A DNA stretch of 64,000 nt from Planctomycetota bacterium (lineage in GTDB: Bacteria; Planctomycetota; MHYJ01; JACQXL01; JACRIJ01): the NCBI GenBank assembly GCA_016220095.1, contig JACRIJ010000044.1, positions 4,191-68,190 of the forward strand. Reading direction: 5' to 3'. Both the position numbers and the translations under genes were made by a program. Below are positions 19,905 to 61,451 of this stretch, in pieces (position 1 is the first letter of the stretch; every line of letters starts with the position of its first letter). Under the pieces are notes generated by a model. The model ran no database searches, was not told where the DNA came from, and worked only from the letters and a program-made list of their open reading frames with translations.

Positions 19905-19910
19905 AATACT

Positions 19911-26088: not shown

Positions 26089-26335
26089 ACACTGGTAACC
26101 GGACAGTGAACGACGACGAATTAACAGGGACTTGACGAGACTTTCAAGGGACTGACGACGCCCGCTAAACAATGTATTAACAATAAAACGACGTAACCGT
26201 TAACCTGTGACGCCTTAACGCTTGTAATCTTATTGCAACATAGTCGTCGTGTCCCGTTTAAGGTCTCGTAGAGTCCCTGTTTAAAAACGTCCGTAGTCCG
26301 TGTTTACCCGTGCACAGACGGGTTACTAACACTGT
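26089..26335. mobile_element. MITE-like palindromic element, family A copy 2.
   Basis: cactggtaaccggacagtgaacgacgacgaattaacagggacttgacgagac ... gtctcgtagagtccctgtttaaaaacgtccgtagtccgtgtttacccgtgcacagacgggttactaacactg. It is homologous to 3410-3636. Confidence 0.6.
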
Positions 26336-27893: not shown

Positions 27894-28225
27894 ATTACAA
27901 GATTGCGAAGATTGGAAGATTACGGGCCACTGATTGTAACTGCACTGTCTTATGAAATCCTGGCAAACACTCTGCACCTGAAAGTGCGCTGAGAAGGCGT
28001 TTTACCGCAGGCAAGGGCATTCTTTTCGTATATGACTTCTGAAGCCACGGATGGCTTTTGATATGCCTTTTTTGACTTTCCCTGCCCCGCTCCCGGCAAA
28101 TCACCGTTTATGCGATTCTCTTTGTTTTTCATATCATTATTATACCACAGCCATTGCCAAAAAGTCAAGAAAAACACCGTACATTATACGAAGAAGGAAG
28201 AATGAAAAATGAAGCATGAAGGACG

Positions 28226-37900: not shown

Positions 37901-40900
37901 CGTTAGCGGTATAAGCGCATCCCGAATTTACTTTCAAACTGTAGAATGACTGGCCGCCGCTTGCTATGGTGCCTGCAACGCCGTTAAAAGTAACCGTGCC
38001 TGAAGGAGTCGTTATGATATTGGTATTTGACCATGAACCCGTAACAGTCATATTGCCGGGTGTTAGCGTGCCGGAATTAGTCAATGAGCCTTTTAATGTA
38101 AAAGCGGTGGCATTGGTAAATGTACCGCTGTTCGTAAAATTACTTTCCATGGTAAAAGTAACCGCATTGGATACGCTCATCGTACCGCCGCTGGTTACGG
38201 CGCCTTTTAACAAAAGAGACGAAGTGGCGCCGGCGCATGAGTAATTAAACTGCCCCACGCCCTCGCCGAGGTTTGATTGTATAACGAGTGTGCCGTTAAC
38301 GGTAAGCTTGATATCATTCGCAGAGGCCGTAAGTACAGCGCCGTCCTGGATTTCAAGGGACGCAAGAGTCGTGGTTATATTCAGGGTAGGCTGTGCTAAC
38401 GCGCCTGTAAATTCGCTTGGACTTGGAATAATAACGCGTTCCGCAGTGGAAGGCACGCCGGACGGCGTCCAATTGTTTGCAGTGCTCCATGAAGTACTTA
38501 CGGAACCGTTCCATTTCTTCGCGGGCCACTGGATGGAACCCGTATTGTCCGGGTCGCCCGGATTCTGCTGGCCGGCCGCGTTGTCATTTTCATAAGCGCC
38601 GCCGGATTTCGCGCCGCTGTAGCCCTGGATTTTCACGACCATGCTTGCGGCAATACTGCCGTTGGCGGTCTGGACGTTATATTGGCAACCGCTGTCAAAA
38701 GAACAACCGGTAAACGCGTAAGTAGAACTGGCAACAATTTTATCTATCTTAAGAAACACACCGACTCCGGAGGAATCCCCGGGGTCAGTAAAGCTGACGT
38801 TGTCAACATCAAATCCTGTCCCTGCGTTCGTCGTAATATTCAAACCGTTGTCCCCAGGATTCTGGAAATTCAATCCGTTAAGCACCACTATGCCGGCGCC
38901 GCTGACCGTCCCCACAGTAAAGGCGTATTTGGAACCGGTATCGGTAACCGTAGGAGTCGTGCCTGAAGATGTAAACGTTCCCTCAATAGTCGCGCCGGTA
39001 ACGCCTAAGCGCAATATTGAATTGCCTGTAAGATTGAACGTGCCGCCTGAAAGCACTGTCAACCCGGTTGAAACGGTAATGTCATCACTGCCGTCCATCG
39101 TCAGAGTACCGGCTATTTTCAGCTGATAGAATGTTGTAGCATTCCCTTCAATCGTACCCGTACTGCCCGTGAACCTTATAACCGTGGAGCCCGGAGTAAA
39201 AGTACCGATATTATTCCAGATGTTTTTCACCCTGACATCGTTAGTAACATCCGACAATGTCGCGCCTGTATTTATTTTCAGGTTATTGAAAACCGTACCC
39301 GCGTTACCCGCAATCTGAGACGAACCGCTGTTGAACGTTACTGTTGAATTGGACGCGGTAAATGTGCCGGTATTGCTGAAAGTCCCGTTCACTTTAATTT
39401 CACTTACGTTTACCGTAAGGGTATTTGTAACGGACAAGTTATTGAATGTGGTAACCGCCGTACCTTCTATAGTTGAAGCGGCGCCTGCGAATGTAACATT
39501 AGAAGTCTGCGACGTAAATGTACCGTTATTTGTCCACTTGCCGTTAATTGTAATGGTATTGCCGCCGCCAATGAACACGGATGAATTGTTTACAGTCAGG
39601 TCCACTGCCGCGATGGCGCCGCCGGCGGTAACGCCGCCCGCGGAAGTATTGCTTACGATAATAACATTATACGTCTCCGCAGGCATGGTCTGCGCGGAAG
39701 TTCCATTAAAATCAACGGTACCGCCCGCCTCGGTAAAGGTTGTTCCGAACGTGATGCCTGTCTTAACCTTAAGATAACCTGAGAGGGTAAACGTTGATGA
39801 TAGAGCAAACGTATCCAAAGCGGTATATACGGAACCCGTAGGTATTGTAACGCTGTTGAACAATGCGCTCCCCATGGTCACGTTACCGGTGGTACCGTTT
39901 AAGGTTACCGTACCAGCGCCTGGTGTAAACGTACCGCTGTTTGTAAAACTGCCGGTAATTATCATATTGCCGGTTGTAAAATTACCGGTATTATTCAGAT
40001 CTCCTGTAACTGCGAATGACGGCGAAGTTGACGTAAAAAAACCCGCGTTCGTCAGCGTGCCTGAAACGTTGAATATCTCAGCGGCCGAACTTACAGTTCC
40101 CTCGTTCTGAATAGTACCGGCATTAAACAAAGAACCCACGCCTGATGATGTAAAATTCAGGTTAGCAGCGGAACCGTATCCCTGGTTGGATTCTATAAAA
40201 AGCTGGTTATTAACTCTGAGAGTTCTATTAGTGCCGCTTGTGGAAAACACCGTACCGTCATATATCATAAGGCTGCCTACGGTGGCATTAATATCCAATA
40301 CGGGGTCATTTGCCGCGCCGACTCTGTCGTCAGGGCTCGGTATAATAACCTTGTCTGAAGCCGTTGGAATGGTACCCGTATTCCAATTGCCCGCGGAACT
40401 CCAGAATTGATTGACATCGCCTTCCCATCTGATGACGCGCCATACGATTGAGCCGCCGCCCGCGACAACGCCTCCCCCCTTATCATTTTCGTAAGTCTCG
40501 CCGGTCCTTAATCCGCTGTCGCCGCTCATAGTAACCGCATTATTCACCACGCCGACATTATTCGTAGTTGACACGTTATACTGGCATCCGTCATTGAACG
40601 TGCATCCCTGGAAGCTGTAAGTATATGCGGCTATTGACGTATAACCGAGGGTAATGTATGTACCCTGGAACAAACCGTCGCTATCGGAAAAAGTTACGTT
40701 ATCTATGTCTATGCTGGTATTAGCATTAGCGGCAATATTTAAACCGTTATCGTTGGGATTCTGGAAAAACAAACCGTTGAGTAAAACTTTTCCTGAATTA
40801 TTCACAGTAAATGAATACTTCGCACCGGTATTGGTAACCACCGGCGTACTGCCTGAAGTGCTGAAAGTCCCGCCCTGAATCGTACATGACACCCCTACGC

Positions 40901-43900
40901 GCAGATAGCATGTATCGGCCATATTCAGAACGCCTGTAACGAGAACCGCGTTATTAGCCTTCAGGTCGTCGCCGCTGTTAAGATTCAATGTGCCGCTCAC
41001 CGTAGTATTGTAAGTTATAAGCGGATTCGTTCCCGCAAGACTGCTGTTACCGCCGTTGAACTCAAGAGTATCATCACCGGCTGTAAATGACCCGTTATTT
41101 GTAAAGATATTCTGTATCTTCAAAGTGCCTGTCGCAGTTGAAATGCCCAGCACGGTGCCGTTAGAGATTTCCATATTATAAAAATTCGTAACCGTAGTAC
41201 CCGAAATATCGCAGGATACTCCCGTAAAATAAACCGTGCTGAAAATCTGCGTAAAAGCGCCGTTATTTACCCAGTTCCCCTTGACTTTCAACTGGTTTAT
41301 CGCGCCTATAGTAAGCGTTTTGACGGTAAATATTTCGATGTTATTGAATTCTGTAACTGAAATGCCGCTTACGGAAGACGGCACGCCCTTGAATACCACT
41401 TTTGATGTTGACGGGGTAAACGTACCGTCATTAGTCCAGTTACCGGTAAGATTGACCGTATATGCCTGGGCATTGAAATTAGCCGATATGCCTATTACAA
41501 TATCTCCGGAAACGGTTACATCGCCGCCGAGTGAAACCGCGGCGCTTGTATTCTCTATATGAAGGTCGTGGTATGACGCGCCACCGGGCGGCTGGGGCAC
41601 TGTCTGGACCGCGGTGCCTGAAAATTCCATTACACCGGCTGTTGACGAAAAAGTGCCGCTCATCGTAATTCCATTTTTTATCTTTAAGGTGCCTTCCACG
41701 CTTAAAGCGCCGCTGACGGTCAACGAATCCGCCGCACTGTAAACCGCGGAAGATATTATCGTAAGATTATTAAAACTTGAACCGCCGCTTGTAAGTGATG
41801 AATTTGCGCCTTTCAACGTAATGGTTCCGGCTCCGGCTGTAAATGTGGCCGAATTGGTGAATGAACCTGATATGCTTACTGTTACCGGCGAAAAAACGCC
41901 CGAATTCGTCACACTGCCGCCGATGGTAAAACTGGCGGAAGATGCGGCATTTGTAAAAGAACCGGTATTGGTAAGATTGCCGTTTATTGTAAACGTTATC
42001 GCATTGCTGACGGAAATGGCGCCGCCGTTGGAGACGTCGCGCTGGATTTCAAGTTTTGAAGTAGTGCCGCCGGAAGTAAAATTCAACTGCCCCGCGCTTC
42101 CTTCGCCCAGGTCGGATTCAATAGTTAATCCGCCCGTTATAACCAACTGCCGGTTATTTCCGGTAGTATCAAGCCGCGAACCGTCTTCCAATATCAAACT
42201 GCCTATGGTGGCATTGGTATTTAGAATGGGATACTCCGTCGTACCGTTATAAACTGGGGCGGTGCTCGGACTGCCGATCTTAACCTTTTCACCCTGTACG
42301 GGAACTCCGTCCGGGGCCCAATTCGCGGCCTCGCTCCAGTTTTGCGTGGAGCCGCCGCCGTCCCATTGCCGTATCGGCCAAACCATATCGCCACCGGCTA
42401 CGTAACCACTGCCGCTCTCGTATTCGTATAGTTCATCGCCTTTCTCGCCGCTTGCCGCAATCATGCTTAAGGCGCTTGCCGCCGCGCTGGCAGGGATGTA
42501 TACGTTGTACTGGCAATACCTGTCAAAACTGCATCCGGAAAAGACATATTTATTGGCGGTAATGCCGGCCATTTCAAGACGCAGGTAATAACCTGTCTGC
42601 AATGTATCGCTATTTGTAAAATTAACGTTATCTATGTTCAGACTGGCCGCGCTGACGATCCGCATGCCGTTATCGTCCGGGTTGGCAAAATTGAGCCCGT
42701 TTATGTTAAGAATGGCAACCGCATTGTTCACCGTAAAAGAAAATTTCGTGCCCGTATCGGTAAGCGTCGGGGTATCCGTAGTTTGAAAAGTTCCGTTTAC
42801 GGTTACTGCCGGTGTGCGTATAGTGCCGTCATTGCTCATGTATAACGTACCCGTGGTTGAAACGGTCAACTGATTCGTTACCGTAACCACATCGCCCGTA
42901 TTAACAACAAGTTTTCCGTCACATTGCAGATTGTAAAAACCAAGATTGGCCCCGGCAACGCCGCCATTCGTGCCGTTAAAAATAACCATTGAAGTCCCGG
43001 CTGAAAACGTGCCGCTGTTTGTGAACGTACCCCTGAGTTTGACCTGCCCTATCGCGCCTATGGAAAGCGTACAGGTATTCTCAAGCGAAATATTATTGAA
43101 CGTGTCCGCAACGACGCCGTTTATCACGGATGAAGCGCCGGTGAAAATGATCGTTGAATTGCCTGAAACAAAACCGGCTGTTGCCGCGTTATTGTCCTGC
43201 CAATTGCCGGAAACCTTTATGGTTTCGCCGGTATTGGTTATAGTCAATGTCGCATTATTGCTTATGGTGACATTATTGAACGTAGGCATGCTTATGCCCT
43301 GGACTTCGGAATTTGCGCCCGCGAATACAACGGTGGAAGAACTGCCGTTGAAAGTGCCGTTATTGATAAAGTTGCCGTTAATGGTAATCTGGGAATTGCC
43401 GCCGGATAACGTTGCGCCCTGGTTGATTGTCAGGTTGCCGTTCACAACAATATTACCCTGCAAGGTTACAGTACTGGAAAGATTGTTGATTACGAGATTA
43501 TTGTAGGTCTTAGCAGGAATACTCTGCGAAATTGAGCCGTTTAATTCCAGCGTACCGCCTGCGGGCGTAAACGTCGCAGGAATGGATATCGCCTTCTGTA
43601 CCTTTAAATAGCCCGCGAGAACCAACGTATCGGTAATAGTAAAATCGTCCGTAGCAGTATAGGAAGACGTTGAAGGGAAATTAACCTTAAAATAACTCCC
43701 GAGGCCTGATGCGATAGTCCTGTTTACGCCCTTGAAATAAACCGTACCCGCGCCGGGAGTAACCATACCCGTGTTATCCCAGTTGCCGAATATATTTATG
43801 GAAACCGGCGTTAGCGCGCCTGAATTTACCATATCGCCGCGCACGGTAAAAAACGCATTCGCCGCGGCAATATTGTTTGTTACAGTGCCGGTATTGAACA

Positions 43901-45248
43901 AATTGCCTTGGATGTCAATGGAGCCTGTCGTGATATTCTGTATGGTAAAATCGCCGTAATTATTGAAATCGCCGCCCACGTCCAGGTAAACGTTCGTACC
44001 TGCCGCGACGCCCCATACGACTGAACCGGCCGCACCCGCTCCGGTATCCGCTTCAATGGTAAAATCACCGGCAACGTTTAACGTCCTGCTGCTGTTAGAG
44101 GTCAGGTTGCCCCCGTCTTCGATAAGAAGAGAAGCTACATTTGCGTCCGTATTTAAGTTTGGCGCGAACTGGTTTGCAAGCGTTGATTCATCGGGAATAA
44201 TTATACGATCGGCGCCTGTAGGAGTTGCATTAGGATTCCAGTTATTGGATGAGCTCCATTGGGTAGTGCCGTTGCCGGCGTCCCATTTCTTTTCCACCCA
44301 GACGATGCTCCCGGGAGTTATTATGCCGCCGCTTGTCTTATCGTCTTCCCATGTCACACCGCCTTTTGTCCCGCCGTATCCGACCATGGATACGGAACTG
44401 TTCGGCGTACCCGCGGTAGTCCTTATGTTATACTGGCAATAGGTATCAAACGTGCAATAGCTTACGCTGTAAGGCGCCTGCGACCAGTCGTTCAGCAGAA
44501 ATTGCAGATAAACGCCGGCTTCAAGCCCGTCGCTATCCGTAAAGTTTATGCCGCCGATGGTCTGCGTCAGTGACGCGGTATTGACAATCTTGAGGCCTTC
44601 GTTATCGGGATTCGTTATGTTCAAATCGGAAACATCGAGAGAACCGCCGTTCTGAACTATGAAAGAAAGCTTTGAACCCGTATCGGCAATGCTCGGAACG
44701 GAACCGCTTGAATTAAACGTGCCTTCAACAACAACTGCCTTGACATTCATCTGGCAGGAGTTTACCATGTAAAAAGACGCACCGTTGTTAACCTTAAACT
44801 GGTTCAACACGGTAATCGTATCGCCGGCATCCATGGTAAGCTTGCTTGAAACCGTAACGTTATAAAAAGTAGGCGCCACGAGGCACGTGCCAATGGTGGA
44901 ATTACTGCCGTTGAATTCCACGGTTGACGTACCGTAATTGAAAGTGCCGTTGTCAATGAATTCGCCGCCTATCCTCAGGGTCGTTACACCGGCTCCCAAA
45001 GAAAGCGTTTTCATGTCGTCTATCTTCAAATTACTAAATGACTGCGTGGCACTGCCGTTGACGGAAGAACTCGTGCCCGTGAATATGACGGTGGAACCGG
45101 TGCTGGTAAAAGTGCCGTTATTCGTCCACGCATTGACAATTTTTACCGGCATGGCAAGTGTAAATGATTTGGCATTGATGATTTCCAGGTCATAGAATTC
45201 CGTCGTGCTTGTGCCGATAACGTACACGGGAGAACCGTTACAACTCAA
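31929..45248 (-). CDS. Giant secreted repeat protein, downstream part (4439 aa): six super-repeats plus a C-terminal beta-propeller. It is almost certainly continuous with 45311..48106 through a -1 frameshift.
   Basis: The ORF track gives 4439 aa. The modules recur with (G)SI(R/Q)WP(A/K)K(K/Q/T)W(N/V)G...W(S/T)xxxNWxPxG(V/K)PxxxxKV(I/V)IP, (G)C(S/T)FDxxCQYN(V/I), L(N/V)G(L/V)NF(Q/A)NP(D/G)DNG(L/M) and ITINGN(F/W)xNNGTFT. The last 550 aa or so are propeller-like (IYCGGTGDDAKAYLFGYN, GLVYIGNNNGKIYGID). Confidence 0.85.
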   Translation of the reverse strand: MSCNGSPVYVIGTSTTEFYDLEIINAKSFTLAMPVKIVNAWTNNGTFTSTGSTVIFTGTSSSVNGSATQSFSNLKIDDMKTLSLGAGVTTLRIGGEFIDNGTFNYGTSTVEFNGSNSTIGTCLVAPTFYNVTVSSKLTMDAGDTITVLNQFKVNNGASFYMVNSCQMNVKAVVVEGTFNSSGSVPSIADTGSKLSFIVQNGGSLDVSDLNITNPDNEGLKIVNTASLTQTIGGINFTDSDGLEAGVYLQFLLNDWSQAPYSVSYCTFDTYCQYNIRTTAGTPNSSVSMVGYGGTKGGVTWEDDKTSGGIITPGSIVWVEKKWDAGNGTTQWSSSNNWNPNATPTGADRIIIPDESTLANQFAPNLNTDANVASLLIEDGGNLTSNSSRTLNVAGDFTIEADTGAGAAGSVVWGVAAGTNVYLDVGGDFNNYGDFTIQNITTGSIDIQGNLFNTGTVTNNIAAANAFFTVRGDMVNSGALTPVSINIFGNWDNTGMVTPGAGTVYFKGVNRTIASGLGSYFKVNFPSTSSYTATDDFTITDTLVLAGYLKVQKAISIPATFTPAGGTLELNGSISQSIPAKTYNNLVINNLSSTVTLQGNIVVNGNLTINQGATLSGGNSQITINGNFINNGTFNGSSSTVVFAGANSEVQGISMPTFNNVTISNNATLTITNTGETIKVSGNWQDNNAATAGFVSGNSTIIFTGASSVINGVVADTFNNISLENTCTLSIGAIGQVKLRGTFTNSGTFSAGTSMVIFNGTNGGVAGANLGFYNLQCDGKLVVNTGDVVTVTNQLTVSTTGTLYMSNDGTIRTPAVTVNGTFQTTDTPTLTDTGTKFSFTVNNAVAILNINGLNFANPDDNGMRIVSAASLNIDNVNFTNSDTLQTGYYLRLEMAGITANKYVFSGCSFDRYCQYNVYIPASAAASALSMIAASGEKGDELYEYESGSGYVAGGDMVWPIRQWDGGGSTQNWSEAANWAPDGVPVQGEKVKIGSPSTAPVYNGTTEYPILNTNATIGSLILEDGSRLDTTGNNRQLVITGGLTIESDLGEGSAGQLNFTSGGTTSKLEIQRDVSNGGAISVSNAITFTINGNLTNTGSFTNAASSASFTIGGSVTNSGVFSPVTVSISGSFTNSATFTAGAGTITLKGANSSLTSGGSSFNNLTIISSAVYSAADSLTVSGALSVEGTLKIKNGITMSGTFSSTAGVMEFSGTAVQTVPQPPGGASYHDLHIENTSAAVSLGGDVTVSGDIVIGISANFNAQAYTVNLTGNWTNDGTFTPSTSKVVFKGVPSSVSGISVTEFNNIEIFTVKTLTIGAINQLKVKGNWVNNGAFTQIFSTVYFTGVSCDISGTTVTNFYNMEISNGTVLGISTATGTLKIQNIFTNNGSFTAGDDTLEFNGGNSSLAGTNPLITYNTTVSGTLNLNSGDDLKANNAVLVTGVLNMADTCYLRVGVSCTIQGGTFSTSGSTPVVTNTGAKYSFTVNNSGKVLLNGLFFQNPNDNGLNIAANANTSIDIDNVTFSDSDGLFQGTYITLGYTSIAAYTYSFQGCTFNDGCQYNVSTTNNVGVVNNAVTMSGDSGLRTGETYENDKGGGVVAGGGSIVWRVIRWEGDVNQFWSSAGNWNTGTIPTASDKVIIPSPDDRVGAANDPVLDINATVGSLMIYDGTVFSTSGTNRTLRVNNQLFIESNQGYGSAANLNFTSSGVGSLFNAGTIQNEGTVSSAAEIFNVSGTLTNAGFFTSTSPSFAVTGDLNNTGNFTTGNMIITGSFTNSGTFTPGAGTVTLNGTTGNVTMGSALFNSVTIPTGSVYTALDTFALSSTFTLSGYLKVKTGITFGTTFTEAGGTVDFNGTSAQTMPAETYNVIIVSNTSAGGVTAGGAIAAVDLTVNNSSVFIGGGNTITINGKWTNNGTFTSQTSNVTFAGAASTIEGTAVTTFNNLSVTNTLTVNVSEIKVNGTFSNTGTFTASNSTVTFNSGSSQIAGNAGTVFNNLKINTGATLSDVTNDVRVKNIWNNIGTFTPGSTVIRFTGSTGTIEGNATTFYQLKIAGTLTMDGSDDITVSTGLTVLSGGTFNLTGNSILRLGVTGATIEGTFTSSGTTPTVTDTGSKYAFTVGTVSGAGIVVLNGLNFQNPGDNGLNITTNAGTGFDVDNVSFTDPGDSSGVGVFLKIDKIVASSTYAFTGCSFDSGCQYNVQTANGSIAASMVVKIQGYSGAKSGGAYENDNAAGQQNPGDPDNTGSIQWPAKKWNGSVSTSWSTANNWTPSGVPSTAERVIIPSPSEFTGALAQPTLNITTTLASLEIQDGAVLTASANDIKLTVNGTLVIQSNLGEGVGQFNYSCAGATSSLLLKGAVTSGGTMSVSNAVTFTMESNFTNSGTFTNATAFTLKGSLTNSGTLTPGNMTVTGSWSNTNIITTPSGTVTFNGVAGTIASGGQSFYSLKVNSGCAYTANDSISMNAGGTLTLPGTLKLKSGITFGAAFDSTGGTLEFNGTVVQSIPTAPSSYNNITVSNTSATVSFGAVVTLNGTLTIATNAVVNAGAYTIVVSGDFTNNGTFQKGTSTITFSGAPSTIGGTSITEFNNVTISATKTLQIGAIGTAKVYGVWTNNNAFTTGSSTVIFTGIASSIAGSAVTEFYNLTVDTGVTMSIDAGIAQAKVKNVFQNDGTFTANSSTVYFTGTTAEVKGANASTFYNVQVTGTLALNAGSDITVSNALTVTSAGTLSMNGSSVLRLGTPSTAGSAAIQGLFQTSGLTPTVTDKGAYFSFTVSGASGKVLINNVTFNNPDANGLSISNTANTGFDIDYASFTSSAYLAGRTYIKINFTAGSYSFAGCSFDANCQYNVFTPSGAIAGGLVVNLLGASGSKAGGTYENDDNNGSQLPAPPANNPDNTGSIRWPAKQWVGTVSNLWSVDNNWNPIGKPQAGDKVVFPTGASNYPVSIDINSTVAGIQIQDGASVSAAAADKQLTLNGNLTLDADGGAAGVPTFTFSSGGLGSLTINGTFTTGSGSSISISSPAFTANGDVTNSGSLTIGSASSTINGKVTNSGTLVLNANITVNADWNNGGSAVFTPNTTTVTLRSSNGTIDSGGDAFYNLTIPTTYTFTANDALSVSNILTVNGMLKIKSSLSVTTTFDNTNGTIEYNGTAIQNVTAFTTYNSITISNTSATVSAGGNFTTNNITINNNAVLDGNGKTITVNNIWTNDGSFTANGSTVIFSGTPSTVAGNNITQFANITIPNTKSLSLSGVSTIKIAAAWTNNGGTFNSGSSTVTFTTASGVINGSATTEFNNITVDGGTLVESVTTNFIDLKGTFSLINSGAFTCGDSEVRFTGLGGATSGTMSFFKITITGTGKLTLDAGDDVTVQSTLAVNASGKLDMQNSCNLRLGTAIAAGTLTFNGDFSTTDTLAKPAINAVNNGNRYSMTFSTSGTVDINGLNVIDPADTGMVMANVGADPSFALDRVVFSKTTGSASGVYLVLNDTTMSGMTFSGCTFDAYCTNNVQAAGGAQNPAISFTAYGGANSGGTYEIDPQNGADPDTSGSIRWPKKTWVGDTSAVWTDPLNWEDNLTIPGNYSKVVIPTAGVTNNPSISSSVEIGSLTMENGRTLSISGNDISFTIHGSFDMTSATFSYSTGGASPKVFLIDGNVTMSGTASIAVGATAGSLTTTISGNATLGVNASITFGAINTLTGSATISGNVDNSGTITVQDFRTLNVTGNFTNQVGSNIQMPDSDTNDANGGTIKISGTFNNLGTVTFGDTADELKVTGNTTAWGTISTDKGTVTVDNQLVSPNIPAGTFYNLKINTNAITTQLTGNVVVKNLLTLQSGTFSLNGLALTIGDTVAPASGTLTVSGGTLSMNTGSSITLTNGSVITVASAAAFTASGGTILSSIPATAYYDITLNGTVNITALDVYNTNTGGKGFYITNTAAITSLTAVAFYNATVGGRHLTIEQNGPISLAVADVYFDDTYLPGGYSVAVIDTAPADGQSVCVTFEYRDAATNGNGAGSATETVTSAAVNWTYTANPDIKGAVQGFPTNAFGFLGVPGWYSTYVASRNINGANTVDRIYVLANDGKLKSPVYYYDLPDASGDIVGTPWWDNEVDTSDCDGDANVVEILHTIYFGTTKGKIVKLIDTGAALNIAAGPWVGGLDISPATDSPATAPVITDDNNIYCGGTGDDAKAYLFGYNKATKVRVASFPVSHILIDKAIYTVPSSVVDAGTTWLFLGTDFVAGSALIERINVDGGVVNASISNTNGSFKSPTMLSSYLYVTDDGSQNANKGWVHAVSPYGGFAAEVASYPWPGAAHTLTGNRVPAGITAAPWDDSGMLFFGDSGGKFYAIPTNNTPKTDAAFDASSFVIQLEAVQISCTPLTIGDGLVYIGNNNGKIYGIDISAGAVVSNPDSGTSYYYYFGQNHDITSVSYDIDADKYMIGTSQGKIFYIEPLIDPTP

Positions 45249-48300: not shown

Positions 48301-49423
48301 GATTGCTGATCTGATATGTCCTTCTCCGACTGCTTAATTTCATTTCCGTCGCCGCATTCAGGATTGAACGACCGCTCATCCTTGTGCCTGCTCATTCAGG
48401 TGTGTATCCCGAGTTTCGGAAATACAATCACAGAAAGCAGTATCCATACGCCGACAACGGCAATCATTATCAATAATGACGAAATATCCATACGCGTAGT
48501 CCCATTAGTGTCTTACGTTTCAACTTCTGCACAAAAAGCACAAAAATTTAAATGTTCCGAAAACTCCAAACACGAACCCCTAAACTATAAAGCAACATAG
48601 CCGCAACCAAACAGTTGTTCGCCTTATGAAATTCTAAGCACTAAGCTCTAAATCCTAAACAAATTCTAAATCCAAATTCTCCAAACCCGGCGGACGACCA
48701 TGTTTCGGTCATTTGAGTTTAGATATTGTTTAGGCTTTCGGACTCGTCCTACGAAGCCTTGGCGCAGTAGGATTTAGGGATTAGAGTTTTATCATCCGTC
48801 AGAATGTTTGGCATTTTTCTGTAAATATTCGCGACTTCGTGTCTTCGCGGCAAAAATCGCCGCAGTTCTCAGTGTTCTCTGAGGTTGACGTCTTGTTGCG
48901 ACTGTCTATTTTCTACATATATTATACCACAAAACACGGGATTTTGTCAAGGCGGAAAAGATAATTTTTGTATCGCCTCCGTGAAAGTCGTAATTTCATA
49001 AAAAACCAAAAACAGGATTTTGTAGAGACACGCGATCGCGTGTCTCTACAGAGTTTGATTATATTTTAACTCTTGAAAGCGACCTTCACTGAGTCCTTAC
49101 TAAATTTTGCAACCCGTCAGTAAACGGGTAAACACGAACTACGGACGTTCTTTAACAGGGACTCTACAAGACCTTAAACGGGATACAACGACCTAACGAA
49201 GAATAAATAATGGGAATCCGATATCCAAGATCCGGCGCTCGGTACCCAACGCCCGGAACCTGAAATTCTAAACCCGGATATCAACCTGTTTCCTATTATA
49301 TAAGTATAGTATTATCAATACATTACACCTTAAAATCAACCTATTCGTTATTTAACATGAATTTTTCATGCTTTTTGTAAAAGACTATAAAGATTTTATT
49401 ACAAAAAAGCCGATAATAGGAGT

Positions 49424-51167: not shown

Positions 51168-51295
51168 TGAAGCTCCCTGTAGCAAGCTACAGGGAATCTT
51201 CTCGTCTAAGGAAAACGAATATTGTATTGTGCCTGCTTACCCTGCAGCAAGCTGCAGGGAATTCGCAGGCAGTGACGATTAAAGTCTCGTCCAGT
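51168..51295. repeat. Composite hairpin repeat element (family D), copy b.
   Basis: tgaagctccctgtagcaagctacagggaatcttctcgtctaaggaaaacgaatattgtattgtgcctgcttaccctgcagcaagctgcagggaattcgcaggcagtgacgattaaa. Confidence 0.7.
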
Positions 51296-51784
51296 CCCTG
51301 TTATAACGCAAGGAGGAAGAGGGAAAAATGAAGGAGGAAGGATGAACGATAGGTGAAAGGTTATAGGTGATAGGTGATAGAATGATAGTCAGTTCAATCC
51401 GTTTAATCTGTTGTAAAAACGTTTCCTGTTTCTCGATTCAATCCTGCTTATTCTTATAGGAATGGAATAATTCCGGAAACAGCATAAAACCTATTACTAT
51501 CCCTGCCACGGCAGGGAAAAACGGATTGCCCGTGAACATTCAGGTCGTCGGCCTGCAAGAGGCCAGGTAATAAATACCGTAACCGGCTGTTCCCCCCAAA
51601 AGCCCGCCCGCTATTCTGTAAAACCAGATTTTCATAAAGCCGTAATCCTGATAGTTGAAAGGTGAACAGGTGACCGCAGTTGAAAAGGGGTTAGACAAAC
51701 ATTGAAACGACGTCGTTCGTTCAACTATCAACTCTCTACTTTCAACTGCTCTGCATTTTTTAGCGGCTTTGCCGCTAAAAAATG

Positions 51785-51856
51785 CTACCCGGGGGGGACT
51801 CGAACCTCCAAAAAGAGAACCAAAACCTCTTGTGTTACCAATTACACTACCGGGTA
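51785..51856 (-). tRNA. tRNA-Gln (anticodon UUG).
   Basis: The minus strand folds by hand as TACCCGG-TA-GTGT-AATTGGTA-ACAC-A-AGAGG-TTTTGGT-TCTCT-TTTT-GGAGG-TTCGAGT-CCCCC-CCGGGTA-G. It has a 7-bp acceptor stem with U1-A72 and discriminator G73, both GlnRS identity elements in E. coli. The D-loop carries GG, the anticodon loop has U33-UUG-G37, and the T-loop is TTCGAGT. There is one A-C mismatch in the T-stem and no encoded CCA. Confidence 0.65.
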
Positions 51857-52410: not shown

Positions 52411-52590
52411 TTTCATCGTCATCCGTCGTCATCCGTCGTCATTCGTCATCATTCGTCATCATTCGTCGTTATTCGTCGTATCGTCGTTATTCGTCGTAAT
52501 TCGTCGTAATCGTCGTATTCGTCGTATTCGTCGTATTCGTCGTAATCTTGCAATCCGTAATCTTCTAATCTTAGAATCTACAATATATAT
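52411..52590. repeat. 9-mer tandem array (tcgtcgtat/tcatccgtcg units, about 15 copies) followed by a decamer motif, directly upstream of hup.
   Basis: tcatccgtcgtcatccgtcgtcattcgtcatcattcgtcatcattcgtcgttattcgtcgtatcgtcgttattcgtcgtaattcgtcgtaatcgtcgtattcgtcgtattcgtcgtattcgtcgtaatcttgcaatccgtaatcttctaatcttagaatc. The ORF-track entry 52317..52499 (+) is a translation artefact of this array. Confidence 0.85.
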
Positions 52591-55900: not shown

Positions 55901-56530
55901 CTACTTATTCGCCGGAGCGAGGACTTTTTTCATTATGCCGTCCTTCAGCATCGCGGCTTCGCTGGTAAGGTTGTCCACTTCCTTGCGCACCTGTAAAATA
56001 AGGTTATCCTCTTTTATCAGGCCGAGGTTGACAAGGACGTTCATCTTGCATCCGTTCAGCGCGGCCTCGGTCAAAAGCGCGCCTGTGCCGATATCGCTTA
56101 TTAGATTGGGATTGGATATCCCGATAAGTTCATGATGGAGTTTCAACACGTCCAGACATATGCGCATGCCGCGCAGGGGAACTTCCATTGCGTACTTGAG
56201 GGCCTTCTGGAGTTCAGCCCTGCGGTGTTCCTTCTGGCCGGCTTCGTTCTTAGGAAGCGTCCACGCCTTGGTAACGGCCTCATACGCGCGAATGTCTTCT
56301 TCCACAAGACTGAACAGCCGCTCCGTGCGCTCCGAAAGCTGTTTAGCCGCTTCTTTAAGCCTGTGTTCATGATCCTTAAGTTCGGGCTTGCCTACTGAAA
56401 AACTTACCGTCATACTGCCGAGCGCGGCGCCGAGCGCGGCTACATACGCCGAAACGCTCCCGCCTCCGGGAGTAGGTGTAGGCGCGGCAGTGATTTCAAG
56501 GAATTTTTTCAGGGTTTCGTTCTCAAACAT
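55901..56530 (-). CDS. Cyclodeaminase/cyclohydrolase family protein (FtcD C-terminal domain-like; formimidoyl- or methenyl-tetrahydrofolate).
   Basis: MFENETLKKFLEITAAPTPTPGGGSVSAYVAALGAALGSMTV is characteristic of the FTCD_C family. Confidence 0.7.
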   Translation of the reverse strand: MFENETLKKFLEITAAPTPTPGGGSVSAYVAALGAALGSMTVSFSVGKPELKDHEHRLKEAAKQLSERTERLFSLVEEDIRAYEAVTKAWTLPKNEAGQKEHRRAELQKALKYAMEVPLRGMRICLDVLKLHHELIGISNPNLISDIGTGALLTEAALNGCKMNVLVNLGLIKEDNLILQVRKEVDNLTSEAAMLKDGIMKKVLAPANK

Positions 56531-56634
56531 CATAATAATATTCCTCCAGTTAAACTGATTTATTGCCACTAAGACACGAGGTCACGAAGCACGCTTCTAT
56601 AAAAAACGTCCTTCGTGTCTTCGCGCCTTCGTGG

Positions 56635-57441
56635 CTAATAAACGTTCATTTTATTATAAAAAATTCTTTCGGCATTTGCAAGGATTACATCCGCTATACG
56701 GCGCTTGGAAACGTTGTTTAATTTCATTGCCGAATCCTTGCACCCTGACATCCTATCTCCTTTCGTCTCGTCCTTCATTTTCCATTTTTCATTTTTCATT
56801 TTCCCCTCTTCGCCGGCCGTCCTTCCTTCTTCATTTTTCATTTTTCCTCCTTCGTCAACCGCCCGTCGTCCGTTTAACCTGTCACCTTTAACCTTTAACC
56901 TATCACCTGTTATAATCCACGCACTGCTCTTATCCGCTCCTATCGCCTTCACCGTATTCAATACGACCATATCAAGTTTTTTCTTATTAAGCTTATCCAC
57001 GGCGTAATCCATATTAAAATCCGCCTCAAGCGCGAAACCTATGACGACCTGGTATTTTTTCTTAGTTCTTGCAACCTCCGCCAGAATATCCGGCGTCTTG
57101 ACCAATCTTAGCGCCATTGCCGTTTTTCCTTTTTTCATCTTGCCTTTTATTTTCAGGGCCGGCATATAATCGCTTACCGCGGCGGCCATAATAAGACAAT
57201 CGCAATTTTTGAAATGTTTCAGGGTTTGTTTCAGCATATCGCGCGCGGAAATGACATTAACGTTTTTTACGCCGCGCGGCGGCTTGACATCAACCGGACC
57301 GGAAATGAATGTAACCTTATGCCCCCTGCGCCTTGCGGCCTCAGCCAAACAACAGCCCATCCTGCCGCTGGAGGCATTACTGATGTATCGCACGTCGTCT
57401 ATGTGTTCCCGGGTGGGACCCGAGGTAACTAATATCCTCAT
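56635..57441 (-). CDS. coaB: Phosphopantothenate--cysteine ligase (CoaB domain only), with an in-frame Lys/Glu-rich insertion of about 50 aa encoded by an intergenic-type repeat.
   Basis: MRILVTSGPTREHIDDVRYISNASSGRMG matches the CoaB N-terminus. The conserved C-terminal helix SKRRIADVILANAERIFYNK is present. Between them, DRLNGRRAVDEGGKMKNEEGRTAGEEGKMKNEKWKMKDETKGDRMSGC is encoded by 56760-56905. The same tcatttttcat/aatgaaaaatgaagga repeat occurs in spacers at 28185-28225, 51305-51345 and 57445-57490. Confidence 0.85.
   Translation of the reverse strand: MRILVTSGPTREHIDDVRYISNASSGRMGCCLAEAARRRGHKVTFISGPVDVKPPRGVKNVNVISARDMLKQTLKHFKNCDCLIMAAAVSDYMPALKIKGKMKKGKTAMALRLVKTPDILAEVARTKKKYQVVIGFALEADFNMDYAVDKLNKKKLDMVVLNTVKAIGADKSSAWIITGDRLKVKGDRLNGRRAVDEGGKMKNEEGRTAGEEGKMKNEKWKMKDETKGDRMSGCKDSAMKLNNVSKRRIADVILANAERIFYNKMNVY
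56760..56905. repeat. Dispersed tcatttttcat / ttaacc repeat lying inside the coaB reading frame.
   Basis: tccttcattttccatttttcatttttcattttcccctcttcgccggccgtccttccttcttcatttttcatttttcctccttcgtcaaccgcccgtcgtccgtttaacctgtcacctttaacctttaacctatcacctg. Confidence 0.7.
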
Positions 57442-57707
57442 GCGCGCAAATCCTCTCTACGAACGAAAATGAAAAAGGAAAAATGAATAATGAAGGACGA
57501 GACGGCGAAATCTATGGGGCAGAGGTCCTTGCCGATTTAATGATTTGATGACTGGAAGACTTGATGATTTGACGATTACGCGTCCGTCGTCAATCATTAA
57601 ATCACCAGCTCATCCAGTCATTAAATCACAGCAGTCCTTCATTCTCCATTTTTCATTATTCATTATTCGTATGAACCGCAGCGATATTGCAACGTTATTT
57701 TCAATTC

Positions 57708-58256
57708 TCAATTTTTAATTCTTACTTTATCAATCCGGTCCATTATAACTTCAACGGACGCCAACCGCCCCTTGCCTTCGGTGCCGCAGGCAAGCCGGCC
57801 TTTTTCGGGTTCAATAAAATCATATCCGATGGATTTAAGCGCCTTGATGTTTTTCTGCAATACAGGATTGTTGTACATAACGTCATTCATTGCCGGAGCT
57901 ATGACTACCGGGGCTTTTGACGCCATCACCGCGGTAGTCAGGTAATCATCCGCGATGCCGTTTGCTAATTTGCCTATGATGTTCGCCGTTGCAGGCGCTA
58001 TCAATATGAGCCGACAGAGACGCGCCAGCGGTATGTGCCCTTCCTCAACTTCATAATCCTGCGGAAACATCTCCGTAATAACCTTGCGGCATGTAATGGT
58101 CTGAAACGTAAGTGGCGCGATAAACTTCTGCGCCGCGGCTGTCATGACCACGTGCACTGAATACCCGTTCTGGACGAGCTTTGAAGCGAGGTCCGCCGCC
58201 TTGTAACAGGCAATACTGCCCGTCACGCCCAGCAGTATTTCCGTGGAATTCTTCAT
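57708..58256 (-). CDS. coaC: Phosphopantothenoylcysteine decarboxylase (CoaC flavoprotein domain, stand-alone).
   Basis: ILLGVTGSIACYKAADLASKLVQNGYSVHVVMTAAAQKFIAPLTFQ...PAMNDVMYNNPVLQKNIKAL. Confidence 0.85.
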   Translation of the reverse strand: MKNSTEILLGVTGSIACYKAADLASKLVQNGYSVHVVMTAAAQKFIAPLTFQTITCRKVITEMFPQDYEVEEGHIPLARLCRLILIAPATANIIGKLANGIADDYLTTAVMASKAPVVIAPAMNDVMYNNPVLQKNIKALKSIGYDFIEPEKGRLACGTEGKGRLASVEVIMDRIDKVRIKN

Positions 58257-58277: not shown

Positions 58278-58472
58278 TTACTTTTTGACCAGTTTAACCT
58301 TTTCGCCGATAATCTCATCAAGAACGATTTCAATGGGATTAACCGCCTGGGTATCCACGAGCTTCTGCGCGCCCCTGATCAATTCCACAATCCTCTTCTG
58401 CATAAGGACGGTCAGCGTGAATTTGCCGCCGACCTTTGCAGTCGCCAATTCAATTTTCTTCATCAACATCAT
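58278..58472 (-). CDS. rpoZ: DNA-directed RNA polymerase subunit omega.
   Basis: MKKIELATAKVGGKFTLTVLMQKRIVELIRGAQKLVD is the RpoZ-like N-terminus. The conserved position between gmk and coaBC supports the call. Confidence 0.7.
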   Translation of the reverse strand: MMLMKKIELATAKVGGKFTLTVLMQKRIVELIRGAQKLVDTQAVNPIEIVLDEIIGEKVKLVKK

Positions 58473-58546: not shown

Positions 58547-59137
58547 TCAATACTTCGTTTCCCGCAGCGCAATTTCAAGTATCTTAGCAACCGCTTTATC
58601 TATATCGTTATTTACTACCCTATAGTCATAAATGCTCTTATATTCCATTTCCGATTCGGCGAGCTTGATGCGTTTTTCCATTTCAACGGCGGTTTCCGTA
58701 CTGCGTTTCTGCAGGCGCTCCTTCAGGGCACTCTTCCGGGGCGGCAGGAGGAAGATATAAACCGCGTCCACTTTCTTTCTTTTCAATTGCAGAACGCCCT
58801 GCGGGTCAAGCGTAAGGAGCGGCACACTGCCGTAATCCGAGATTCTTTTCAATTCCGATTTCAACGTGCCGTAGCGCGCGCCGGCGATATCAGCGTGTTC
58901 AAGAAACCTGCGCTGTTTAAGCCATCCGCCGAATTTTTTTTCCGCTATGAAATAATAATCAACGCCTTCTTTTTCATTCCGACGCATTTTGCGGGTAGTC
59001 GCGGAAACCGAACGTTCAAACTTTATGCCGCAACTGCCGGGCAGTTTCAAAAGCCGCCCGCACACGGTGGACTTGCCCACGCCCGAAGGCCCTGAAATAA
59101 CCACTGCTTTTTTCTGCAAACAGCTGTTCCTATTCAA
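58547..59137 (-). CDS. gmk: Guanylate kinase.
   Basis: The P-loop is VVISGPSGVGKSTV. It overlaps yicC by 8 bp. Confidence 0.95.
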   Translation of the reverse strand: MNRNSCLQKKAVVISGPSGVGKSTVCGRLLKLPGSCGIKFERSVSATTRKMRRNEKEGVDYYFIAEKKFGGWLKQRRFLEHADIAGARYGTLKSELKRISDYGSVPLLTLDPQGVLQLKRKKVDAVYIFLLPPRKSALKERLQKRSTETAVEMEKRIKLAESEMEYKSIYDYRVVNNDIDKAVAKILEIALRETKY

Positions 59138-60011
59138 TATTTTGGACCTGTTCTTTTATCTTTTCAAGGTTATTTTTTATTCCGACCGCCACGCTGACAA
59201 TCTTATTGTCATTAGCCTTGGAAGCGATGGTATTGGCTTCCCTGAACAGTTCCTGGACTATAAACTCAAGGTTCTTTCCTATATTTTCAGAACGTTTCAG
59301 GATATCGGTAAATTCGGTCAGATGCGAACTTATGCGCTGGGTTTCCTCGGATATATCGCATTTATCCGCGAAAAGCGCGATTTCCCTCGCAAGCTCGTTC
59401 GCCTGCAAGTTATGACTGCGCGTATCAACGAGTTTCTTGAGGCGCTGTTCGAGTTTGAATTTATATTCCTTTATTGTCTGGGGGGCGAATTTTTCTATTT
59501 TTTTAAGCTGTTCCGCTATTTCGGCGGCGACTGAAACGATATGTTTCTGTATTTTTGCGCCTTCGCGCATCCGTGCCGAATCAAACCTGACAAGCGCCGC
59601 GGTTACGGCCCTGCGCACCCTCGGCCAAAGACGCCTTGTGCGTTCCCTGTCAAGTTTTTCATTACGGTCCAGCACGCCTGGGAGGAGAAGTATCGTATCC
59701 AGCGAAAGTTCCGGCTTTATGCACAACTCATCTTTCAATCCCCTTAACTGCTTCATGTAAAGCCGTATGGCTTCCCTGTTGATGGATATATGCTCAGGCA
59801 TTTCCTGCTGAAGGCTTATGAATATTTCAAGCGTACCGCGCGAAACGGCGTTTTTCGCGAGCAATTCCACATCCTGCTGGAAAATCCTCAACGCATCCGG
59901 CAAAGTCGTATTTATTTTCAGGTAACGGCCGTTGTAGGAACGCACTTCTACTTCTATGCAAAAACCGCTTTCCTTCTCCTGCGCGTACCCGAAACCTGTC
60001 ATGCTTTTCAT
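59130..60011 (-). CDS. yicC: YicC-family stress-induced protein.
   Basis: MKSMTGFGYAQEKESGFCIEVEVRSYNGRYLKI is the YicC N-terminal signature. Confidence 0.85.
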   Translation of the reverse strand: MKSMTGFGYAQEKESGFCIEVEVRSYNGRYLKINTTLPDALRIFQQDVELLAKNAVSRGTLEIFISLQQEMPEHISINREAIRLYMKQLRGLKDELCIKPELSLDTILLLPGVLDRNEKLDRERTRRLWPRVRRAVTAALVRFDSARMREGAKIQKHIVSVAAEIAEQLKKIEKFAPQTIKEYKFKLEQRLKKLVDTRSHNLQANELAREIALFADKCDISEETQRISSHLTEFTDILKRSENIGKNLEFIVQELFREANTIASKANDNKIVSVAVGIKNNLEKIKEQVQNIE

Positions 60012-60030: not shown

Positions 60031-60342
60031 TTATTTGTCTGCCGGCGCTTTTTCGGGTGAAGACGCCGCCGGTTTTGAAAGTTCTATGCCTTCATGTTTC
60101 ACAGGCAGTTTATTTATGATGACCGCCAGAGCGAAATAAATGACTACAAGCACGATTGTAAATTTCCACGCGTAGGAAATAGCCTTGGTACCGAAGAAAG
60201 AATCGCTGACGCCGCCGCCGAAAGCGCTCGCAAGCCCGCCGCCTTCATGAGGCTGTATTAATACCACTGCTATCATCAATATACATACCAATATAAAAAC
60301 CACGGTCAATAAAACAAACAAAAATCCCATATAGAACCTCAA
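60031..60342 (-). CDS. secG: Preprotein translocase subunit SecG.
   Basis: Two TM helices plus LIQPHEGGGLASAFGGGVSDSFFG. Confidence 0.85.
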   Translation of the reverse strand: MRFYMGFLFVLLTVVFILVCILMIAVVLIQPHEGGGLASAFGGGVSDSFFGTKAISYAWKFTIVLVVIYFALAVIINKLPVKHEGIELSKPAASSPEKAPADK

Positions 60343-60347
60343 AAATA

Positions 60348-61106
60348 TTAATAATATTTTACAATCTTCTCAAAAGAATCAGCCTTAAGACTGGCGCCTC
60401 CCACGAGAGCGCCGTCAATGTCCGGCGCACTCATAAGTTCTTTTATGTTCTCGGGTTTTACACTGCCGCCGTAGAGAATAAGCATTTCGCCTGCTACGGC
60501 CGGCCCTGCGATACCCGAAATAAGCCCTCTAATCATATTATGCACTTCCTGGGCCTGGGCCTGCGTAGCGGTCTTGCCGGTGCCGATGGCCCATACGGGT
60601 TCGTAGGCAACGACCATCCGCCTGATATCGTCCGCGGAAAAACCTTTAAGCCCGTTGCGCACCTGGCTTGTGATGACACTGCCGGTCTGCCCGGATTCAC
60701 GCTGATTCAGAAGTTCGCCTACGCATAAAACCGGCGTAAGCCCTTCCTTCAGGCATGCCCTCAGCTTTTTATTTATAATTTCGTCAGTCTCTCCCATTAT
60801 ATGCCTGCGTTCGGAATGGCCGATGATTGCATAATCACAACCGACATCCTTAAGCATGCCTGCGGAAATTCCGCCGGTAAACGCGCCTGACGCCTCGTAA
60901 AACGCGTCCTGCGCGCCAAGCTTTATGTCACTGCCTTCAAGAACGTCTTTCACGTCAAGCAAATACACGAACGGCGGACATATTGCAACGGAAACCTTCT
61001 CAAAGACATCTTCCTTTAGAAGTCTTTTTATGCCTGAAGCGAGCTCAACAGCCTCCTTAAGGCAGGTATTCATCTTCCAATTACCCATCATTAATTTCTT
61101 GCGCAT
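60348..61106 (-). CDS. tpiA: Triosephosphate isomerase.
   Basis: MRKKLMMGNWKMN...AIIGHSERR...AYEPVWAIGTG... Confidence 0.95.
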   Translation of the reverse strand: MRKKLMMGNWKMNTCLKEAVELASGIKRLLKEDVFEKVSVAICPPFVYLLDVKDVLEGSDIKLGAQDAFYEASGAFTGGISAGMLKDVGCDYAIIGHSERRHIMGETDEIINKKLRACLKEGLTPVLCVGELLNQRESGQTGSVITSQVRNGLKGFSADDIRRMVVAYEPVWAIGTGKTATQAQAQEVHNMIRGLISGIAGPAVAGEMLILYGGSVKPENIKELMSAPDIDGALVGGASLKADSFEKIVKYY

Positions 61107-61111
61107 AAATA

Positions 61112-61184
61112 CGATTCCAAGATTACAAGATTCTAAGATTAGAATCCTTTAATCTTAGAATCTTGTAATCTTAGAATCTTCCAA
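61112..61184. repeat. Palindromic decamer AGATTnnAAG array immediately upstream of the tpiA start.
   Basis: cgattccaagattacaagattctaagattagaatcctttaatcttagaatcttgtaatcttagaatcttccaatc. Confidence 0.8.
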
Positions 61185-61244
61185 TCAATAAAACATATTA
61201 GTATACTAAAAACGGTCTTTTTGTCAAGAAAAATCAAAAATTTG

Positions 61245-61352: not shown

Positions 61353-61394
61353 CCTGCCTGCGCGAAGCCGATGCTTCGCTTCGGCGGAGGCAGG
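61353..61394. repeat. 42-bp hairpin element, the exact reverse-complement copy of 8251-8292, inside the tatA leader.
   Basis: cctgcctgcgcgaagccgatgcttcgcttcggcggaggcagg. Confidence 0.85.
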
Positions 61395-61451
61395 CGCGGA
61401 AGTTGAGACGTAAGAAACTAAACCCCGTAACCCTAAACACCGTATCTATTT

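Follow-up and report, generated by a model that had tools for sequence, protein, structure and literature searches.

How a tandem repeat with a seven-nucleotide period comes to lie within the reading frame of an essential enzyme gene, and what it does there, is the question raised by the coaC–coaB locus in a 64,000-nt stretch of DNA from a Planctomycetota metagenome-assembled genome (MAG); the whole stretch is referred to here as the window, and all coordinates are window positions. The coaB gene (Table 1; protein accession MBI5359744.1) encodes a stand-alone phosphopantothenate–cysteine ligase and carries, near its 3' end, an in-frame insert built from repeat modules that occur mostly between genes elsewhere in the window. 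The reading that we favour, with a probability of roughly 0.8, is that the repeat entered an already stand-alone CoaB and was tolerated there as near-neutral "selfish or slippage DNA", rather than being an adaptation.

Alignments of the window CoaB with 14 and then 63 homologues placed the insert (RLKVKGDRLNGRRAVDEGGKMKNEEGRTAGEEGKMKNEKWKMKDETKGDRMSGCKD) between the segments AWIITGD and SAMKLNNVSK, where the homologues have a turn of one to two residues; it was missing from 62 of the 63 aligned homologues. A first-pass annotation of this DNA had reported a repeat copy in frame at 56760–56905; the copy is real, and its extent is corrected by the protein alignment to that given in Table 1. In its anatomy the insert is a mosaic of simple-sequence tandem arrays (B array, A unit 1 and A unit 2, Table 1), not a miniature inverted-repeat transposable element (MITE). 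The units of the B array read TAACCTN on the plus strand and GGTGATA/GGTTAAA on the coding strand, and Tandem Repeats Finder (TRF) additionally detected a period of 49 with 2.1 copies over 56768–56871. The insert folded no better than its shuffled versions (z = +0.18) because only the purine-rich arm of the repeat is present; not being palindromic and having no inverted termini, it was rejected as a member of the MITEs or of the Rickettsia palindromic elements (RPEs). The complementary arm in coaB would encode a Phe/Ile/His/Ser-rich sequence and would bring a strong mRNA hairpin with it.

When the insert was compared with the rest of the window by blastn, the best match comprised 40 nt at 92.5% identity (E = 7e-12, 60.3 bits) to 57465–57504 in inverted orientation, whereas 100 shuffled inserts reached a mean of 24 and a maximum of 31.5 bits. 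Further matches connected A unit 1 with 28188–28225 (38 nt, 89.5%, E = 5.5e-9) and 51310–51342 (33 nt, 88%), positions 56770–56800 with 57634–57664 in the coaC–coaB spacer (31 nt, 93.5%), and the TAACCTN array with 51351–51375 (25 nt, 88%), within an array at 51348–51380. The match between insert and spacer takes in the non-repetitive flank CGTCTCGTCC, and the boundary motif CGTCCTTC is likewise not a simple repeat. Because the matches exceed those of shuffled inserts and include non-repetitive boundaries such as CGTCTCGTCC, the insert is, by similarity of the DNA, homologous to intergenic repeat beyond shared low complexity, in agreement with the initial proposal that an intergenic-type repeat lies in frame inside coaB. 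The further statement that it consists of the spacer's own repeats stands only in part: the TTCATTT family, the only one common to both, supports it, and the TAACCTN module matches the array at 51348–51380 and is unlike the tcattaaatcac octamers. Neither the insert alone nor the C-terminal 124 amino acids (aa) gave matches in protein searches, for which composition bias and shortness are the likely reason.

Modules of this kind are abundant in this uncultured planctomycete, whose lineage has an unusual wealth of heptamer and octamer arrays that form hairpins. TRF identified at least 33 tandem arrays of 7–8-nt units in the window (periods 7, 8, 14 and 16), belonging to the unit families TTCATTT/GAAAAAT, AATCTTNN, CGGGACC, CACGAAG, TCGTCGT and GATAGGT/TAACCTN. 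As in long simple sequence repeats, which are defined by head-to-tail units of 5–11 nt, their length and frequency are above chance. Only 5 of the 33 were mostly genic in a window of which 78% is coding (binomial P = 3e-14): three are internal to coaB, one falls in the final 15 codons of a 949-aa open reading frame (ORF) at 29036–31885, and one overlaps the last codons of coaC. An array seemingly within a Ham1 ORF was rejected as genic, being located upstream of the Pfam-supported start. The A unit of the TTCATTT family has a length of about 38–40 nt, begins with CGTCCTTC and finishes with CTTCGT; like MITEs and RPEs, A units occur in multiple dispersed copies with defined ends, namely those of the insert and the spacer (Table 1) and one at 28188–28225, with weaker copies at 2054, 9481 and 29045. 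The pattern CGTCCTTC+(ATTTTTC)n, allowing up to three mismatches, gave five matches in the window (0 expected), of which two lie in coaB, two are inverted spacer copies and one lies at 28201–28225; the 17-mer TTCATTTTTCATTTTTC, allowing up to two mismatches, gave 15 (0.08 expected). No RAYT-type (Y1) transposase was found among the 36 window ORFs scanned. As a separate observation, an A-unit copy at 29039–29086 (minus strand) encodes the last ~14 residues (RRIKNEKGKRAGRSL*) of ORF 29036–31885, a β-propeller/fn3/β-helix protein; it constitutes a second, terminal case of a translated A unit, and its peptide resembles the coaB insert (NEKGKRAG versus NEEGRTAG).

Comparison of orthologous loci, which the first-pass annotation had suggested as a check, revealed repeat-built inserts at the same site in relatives. 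Among the 120 best CoaB matches, proteins longer than 230 aa formed only two clusters, the window's own and P0002 (contig L001), a protein of 261 aa with 76% identity to the window CoaB. The L001 insert lies at the same codon as that of the window and comprises 141 nt (47 aa). Both share the GGTNANA array, in which the B-array units are conserved, and the first A unit at ~85% DNA identity, whereas the 3' part of the L001 insert consists of TCCGGAG/TCAGGAG heptamers where the window has its second A unit. A protein from a second sample, P0121 (contig L016), has an insert of 162 nt (54 aa) at the same site, also with a TCAGGAG-type array in the position of A unit 2. The window insert is flanked by GGTGATAGG and GGAGATAGG, both of which are GATAGGT repeat-family sequence; the 3' copy is absent from L001 and L016. 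Over the aligned coaB 3' region, L016 and L001 are identical save for a tandem duplication of 21 nt in the insert of L016 (AGTCCGG AGTCAGG AGTCAGG, peptide ESGVRSQ), corresponding to three heptamers, and the intergenic hairpins downstream of coaB differ in length by 7 nt. Length changes by whole units between close strains, as slippage produces them, were thus seen both between genes (7 nt) and in coaB (21 nt). Since 168, 141 and 162 nt, the lengths of the three inserts, are each divisible by 3 despite the 7-nt units, they provide direct evidence that slippage continues and is filtered by selection for the reading frame. In an 87%-identical relative (L002), coaB seems frameshifted in an A-run (625–658), 30 nt from the end of the 658-bp contig, which makes the insert site unreadable; the frameshift most likely stems from an error in the homopolymer or in the assembly. 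Scans of genome and metagenome contigs for CoaB gave only distant relatives (31–48% identity) and no more insert-bearing loci, and an exact look-up of the window CoaB in the contig index gave no match.

The effect of the insert on the enzyme was evaluated at the level of fold, reading frame and selection. The profile match to PF04127 (DFP C-terminal domain, 213 bits) covers residues 2–176 and ends just before the insert, and the sequence matches CoaB entries of the PDB. An AlphaFold2 model built on a 64-sequence alignment had a mean predicted local distance difference test score (pLDDT) of 85.9 and a predicted template modelling score (pTM) of 0.80, with pLDDT values of 95–98 in the core versus block means of 38–53 in the insert (<50 for residues 185–215). 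The insert is preceded by a strand (171–178) and followed by a strand (238–245) and a helix (246–267), the latter two at pLDDT 98, and Foldseek aligned the model over its full length with E. coli CoaB (1u80_A, E = 9e-22, target template modelling score 0.90, root mean square deviation 1.6 Å). The insert is accordingly modelled as a disordered surface loop at the turn of the last β-hairpin with a confident fold on both sides, a structure prediction having been suggested at the outset as a check for such a loop; the site lies one element earlier than the position first assigned, between the last two β-strands and not between the last strand and the C-terminal helix. Judged from the strand count in the model, this hairpin is probably part of the CoaB dimerisation β-sandwich, to which each protomer contributes four strands (PMC7794376). 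The K-X-K-K motif, a conserved nucleotide-binding loop of CoaB (PMC7794376), is present as KMKK (101–104), with K101 invariant and K103 and K104 at least 90% conserved in the 64 sequences; K246, located 3' of the insert, is invariant as well.

In the coding frame the window insert contains no stop codon, versus 5 and 6 in the other two frames, and the L001 insert none versus 4 and 5. With three units or more, a perfect (GAAAAAT) array would contain TGA in every frame, since 21 nt visit all seven codon phases; at the would-be TGA position the window has TGG or GGA and L001 has TGC. Ratios of nonsynonymous to synonymous substitution rates (dN/dS) between the window and L001, calculated according to Nei and Gojobori, were 0.16 for the 180 codons before the insert (dS = 0.59), 0.29 for the 34 codons after it (dS = 0.27), and 0.60 for the 33 codons of the shared 5' part of the insert itself (dS = 0.46). 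Together with the model, these comparisons indicate that the insert is translated and that coaB is functional. The possibility of a pseudogene, named at the outset as one that would overturn the proposal, is rejected because of the stop-free frame, the dN/dS values of the flanks and the invariance of K246.

The following course of events would account for these findings. In a genome full of short 7–8-nt arrays, nearly all of them intergenic and often with complementary arms forming a hairpin, the common ancestor of the window genome and the L001/L016 lineage would have acquired a piece of repeat at the turn of the last β-hairpin. This piece would have comprised a GGTNANA heptamer array together with an A unit of the GAAAAAT type, exclusively in the purine-rich orientation, and could have arrived as a copy made from a different locus or through local slippage. 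As this site is a loop, translation of the insert would yield a disordered Lys/Glu/Gly-rich segment with the enzyme fold kept, and selection on the downstream strand and the C-terminal helix would keep it open and its length a multiple of 3. It would then evolve like the intergenic arrays, exchanging units and slipping, in coaB only by the 21-nt (three-heptamer) steps that have been seen. The second A unit of the window was most likely copied from the inverted A unit of the spacer, which lies 661 nt upstream and to which it is most similar; this suggests copying between nearby inverted repeats by template switching or gene conversion. The locus presents a clean natural example of a 7-nt non-triplet repeat living inside an essential enzyme gene, where the only forms to survive have a stop-free frame and differ in length by 21-nt steps, and it illustrates one way for conserved proteins to acquire low-complexity loops.

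An acquired protein function would be another way to explain the persistence of the insert: the Lys/Glu-rich loop might, for example, dock stand-alone CoaB to CoaC or stabilise the CoaB dimer where the fusion of the two enzymes is lacking. Two lineages with a dS of ~0.59 between them have both kept it in frame at this site, and the hairpin in which it lies likely belongs to the dimerisation sandwich, with oligomerisation being of importance for CoaB activity (PMC7794376). Nevertheless, its length of 56, 47 or 54 aa varies even between near-identical strains, and ~118 other stand-alone CoaBs of the clade work without it. Tolerance fits better because dN/dS in the shared part of the insert is 0.60 versus 0.16 in the core, the 3' half has been replaced in the relatives by an unrelated heptamer family, and the pLDDT falls below 50. 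Exaptation, which the first-pass annotation had put forward, is therefore unsupported and regarded as unlikely. Several points nonetheless weigh against tolerated, near-neutral DNA. Only two lineages with three alleles carry the insert, and the timing and direction of the events rest on these few sequences; the disorder is predicted from an alignment with almost no depth in the insert; a 56-aa loop in a probable dimerisation sandwich (PMC7794376) might not be neutral; and persistence over a dS of ~0.6 could also reflect function. In addition, no clear target-site duplication or inverted termini marking transposition were found at the insert, and copying and local slippage from a seed GGTGAT appear inseparable at the level of the DNA.

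The same repeats had been held responsible for dividing a bifunctional coaBC gene. On the minus strand of the window the gene order is tpiA, secG, yicC, gmk, rpoZ, coaC, coaB and an FTCD_C-like gene (Table 1). The PF02441 and PF04127 domains, which are united in one polypeptide in bifunctional CoaBC (Dfp), are encoded here by two ORFs, each with its own start and stop, and a Shine–Dalgarno-like AGAGAGGA precedes the start of coaB. The coordinates, protein lengths and 266-bp spacer initially given for the two genes agree with the ORF list and with Pfam, and the conservation of the yicC-gmk-rpoZ-coaC-coaB cluster is likewise corroborated, its members being confirmed by Pfam and its order being repeated in contig L013. 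However, all 120 best CoaB homologues, which derive from Planctomycetota, Phycisphaerae and Sedimentisphaerales MAGs, are stand-alone proteins of 160–230 aa with PF04127 only, bar the insert-carrying 261-aa relative. In L013 (P0092, 47% identity) the order is tpiA-secG-yicC-gmk-rpoZ-coaC(186 aa)-coaB(209 aa) with a 46-bp gap between the last two genes, and in L014/L015 (P0006) it is gmk-(rpoZ-sized ORF)-coaC(194 aa)-coaB(218 aa) with a 5-bp gap; neither gap contains repeats, and the CoaB proteins of these loci share 45–49% identity with that of the window. Upstream of coaB, a σ70-like site (TTGACT-16-TATAAT, 11/12 matches) was found in L001 (52–79), L016 (52–79) and L002 (106–133), ending 9 nt (L001/L016) or 38 nt (L002) before the coaB ATG. 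The window and L002 share the 5' untranslated region (UTR) next to the coaB start; further upstream, the place of the promoter-like site is taken in the window by the repeat hairpin, and a consensus scan of the window spacer detected neither a strong promoter nor a strong terminator, the best matches being 9/12 and located within the hairpin loop.

Because the homologues are stand-alone, the genes of distant loci are separate without repeats, and promoter-like sites precede coaB in the relatives, the separation of coaC and coaB is, on this comparative evidence, ancestral and long predates the repeats, contrary to the proposed splitting. The repeats, as judged from the gaps in these loci, enlarged an existing gap from tens of bp to 266 bp, and they may have displaced a promoter. 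No repeat-driven gene fission is shown, and stand-alone coaC and coaB appear to be normal for this clade. Separate CoaB and CoaC polypeptides also occur in Streptococcus pneumoniae, whose stand-alone CoaB (2GK4) matches the window CoaB; the enterococcal type III phosphopantothenoylcysteine synthetase is another monofunctional bacterial CoaB. The planctomycete CoaB is less close to 2GK4 than to the domain of that enzyme in fused CoaBC (5int, 1u7u), and the planctomycete genes differ from those of monofunctional CoaB and CoaC in being adjacent and in the fused order, coaC then coaB.

In the transcribed, minus-strand orientation, almost the entire spacer (~57444–57694) forms one long imperfect hairpin with a predicted free energy of −94 kcal/mol (z = −6.3; none of 200 shuffles was as stable), in which A units constitute the outer and GATTTRAT octamers the inner arms; tandem arrays occupy 57466–57494, 57534–57577 and 57638–57668. 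The hairpin following coaB (Table 1) is present in all three genomes. In L001 (847–986, z = −6.1) and L016 (868–1000, z = −4.7) it is of the GAAAAAT type, and the final codons of coaB (KRKMKNE*) come from its 5' arm. Stable hairpins situated at the ends of genes or inside operons, with z-scores of −4.7 to −9.3, comprise 57442–57707, 56566–56640, 19905–20015, 61107–61195 and the post-coaB spacers of L001 and L016. They may be conserved in position while their sequence turns over quickly, and a role as 3'-end or UTR structures is proposed. A search of Rfam assigned neither the spacer nor the insert to a known RNA family, the sole match in the window being tRNA-Gln at 51784–51856. It is very unlikely that the 7–8-nt arrays form an undescribed class of structured regulatory elements, with the coaB copy serving as a long-range RNA switch that couples coaB translation to the spacer hairpin; such a class would keep its positions after stops and in 5' UTRs, with the unit sequence turning over in concert on both arms.

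A more limited role of the insert in the RNA, in which A unit 2 pairs with the UTR A unit beside the coaB ribosome-binding site and thereby modulates translation or mRNA stability, has the pairing itself in its favour: the UTR arm (57465–57504) and A unit 2 (56764–56803) are complementary over 40 nt at 93%, including the non-repetitive flank, and when spacer and coaB are folded together (1008 nt), the minimum free energy and the centroid structure alike pair the UTR arm with A unit 2 instead of the local arm. This pairing is, however, not conserved, as L001 and L016 have neither a UTR array in the 37 nt from the promoter-like site to the ATG nor A unit 2; moreover, the local hairpin would be the first to form as transcription proceeds, the insert would be unwound by ribosomes during translation, and matches of this kind are expected in a genome so rich in complementary arrays, all of which renders such a role most doubtful. 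Coincidental low complexity, a coaB pseudogene or an assembly artefact, for which the low-complexity sequence, the frequency of repeat-induced assembly errors and the end of both the L001 and L016 contigs 88 nt upstream of coaB might be cited, is largely refuted by an intergenic similarity far above that of shuffles and extending into non-repetitive boundaries, by the same insert site in three independent assemblies, and by an intact ORF with flanks under purifying selection.

In comparison with systems described in other bacteria, the coaB case is best regarded as a new example of a known phenomenon and not as a new mechanism, with RPEs and heptanucleotide repeats as the closest parallels. 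RPEs occur in frame within protein-coding genes (Ogata et al. 2000, reviewed in PMC10969869). Both cases concern a dispersed, mostly non-coding repeat that lies in frame in a housekeeping or metabolic gene and encodes a fold-compatible peptide, with the gene remaining functional. RPEs, however, are discrete, palindromic, MITE-like elements of ~100–150 bp, whereas the coaB insert is a non-palindromic 7-nt mosaic without inverted termini that changes its length by slippage and is the one internal case in the 64-kb window. The TAACTGA heptamer repeats of Beggiatoaceae, cyanobacteria and Bacteroidetes are mostly intergenic, and the few that are translated lie mostly at protein ends (PMC4679880). 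Such long simple sequence repeats resemble the arrays described here in being 7-nt arrays located mostly between genes, often just before starts or overlapping stops, and in yielding stop codons in all frames in one orientation. They differ in that the window has several heptamer and octamer families, combined in mosaics and often hairpin-forming, and in that the coaB case lies deep inside an essential enzyme and not at its terminus, with in-frame variation of 21 nt seen between strains. Enterobacterial repetitive extragenic palindromic (REP) sequences and bacterial interspersed mosaic elements (BIMEs) resemble the window repeats in their mosaic, imperfectly palindromic make-up and their extragenic position, both at the ends of genes and inside operons, as well as in being plausible mRNA 3'-end or stability hairpins; there is no sequence relationship, the arms in the window are tandem 7–8-mers, and REPs are not normally translated.

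Table 1. Genes, repeat modules and hairpins at the coaC–coaB locus (window positions)
Feature	Position	Strand	Description
tpiA	60348-61106	-	
secG	60031-60342	-	
yicC	59130-60011	-	Pfam PF03755/PF08340
gmk	58547-59137	-	Pfam PF00625
rpoZ	58278-58472	-	Pfam PF01192
coaC	57708-58256	-	Stand-alone phosphopantothenoylcysteine decarboxylase, 182 aa; PF02441 Flavoprotein, E 3.9e-32
coaC–coaB spacer	57442-57707	.	266 bp, repeat arrays
A-unit copy in spacer	57634-57672	+	GTCCTTC + TTCATTT-type heptamers; outer 5' arm of spacer hairpin in mRNA
Inverted A-unit copy in spacer	57465-57504	-	Beside coaB ribosome-binding site; nearest window relative of A unit 2
coaB	56635-57441	-	Stand-alone phosphopantothenate–cysteine ligase, 268 aa, intact; PF04127, E 3.6e-63
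In-frame insert in coaB	56734-56901	-	168 nt / 56 aa, residues 181-236; from protein alignment
B array	56873-56910	-	~5 heptamers, encodes GDRLKVKGDRLN; TRF period 7, 5.1 copies
A unit 1	56818-56855	-	CGTCCTTCCTTCTTCATTTTTCATTTTTCCTCCTTCGT, encodes GGKMKNEEGRT; common to L001 and L016
A unit 2	56764-56806	-	Encodes GKMKNEKWKMKDET; window lineage only
Post-coaB hairpin	56570-56634	-	CACGAAG-type, directly after coaB stop; -38.4 kcal/mol, z -7.9
FTCD_C cyclodeaminase-like gene	55901-56569	-	3' neighbour of coaB

Repeats elsewhere in the window comprise both further arrays and other dispersed families. The 5' UTR of the gene for HU (PF00216) contains a 132-nt ACGACGAAT-type array (52412–52544) between a conserved TTGACA-type promoter-like site and a GGAGG motif; the corresponding region of L016 (4930–5071) has 2–3 units, and by this comparison the window array is an in-place expansion of an orthologous array. 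Another dispersed family (GTCTCGTNNAGTCCCTGT, ~28–87 nt) occurs in direct and inverted orientation, often as long-loop hairpins, at 3440–3590, 11121–11161, 15877–15917, 26119–26329, 49106–49192 and 51279–51306, and includes an 87-nt pair with 87% identity (26243–26329 and 49106–49192). A direct repeat of 109 nt (82%) is located at 8012–8120 and 8142–8250; it adjoins a GC-rich palindromic motif of 46 nt (8247–8292) that recurs in inverted orientation 53 kb away at 61353–61398 with 98% complementarity. A 4439-aa ORF (31929–45248, minus strand) with internal DNA repeats ~1.9 kb apart probably encodes a large repetitive surface protein and is followed by a 931-aa ORF without a Pfam match. Finally, an ORF of 142 aa with only a Recombinase domain (PF07508, 49520–49948) lies near tRNA-Gln (ttg, 51784–51856) with dense arrays around it; this pair is syntenic in L016 (7461–7880), and the ORF may be the remnant of an integrated element.

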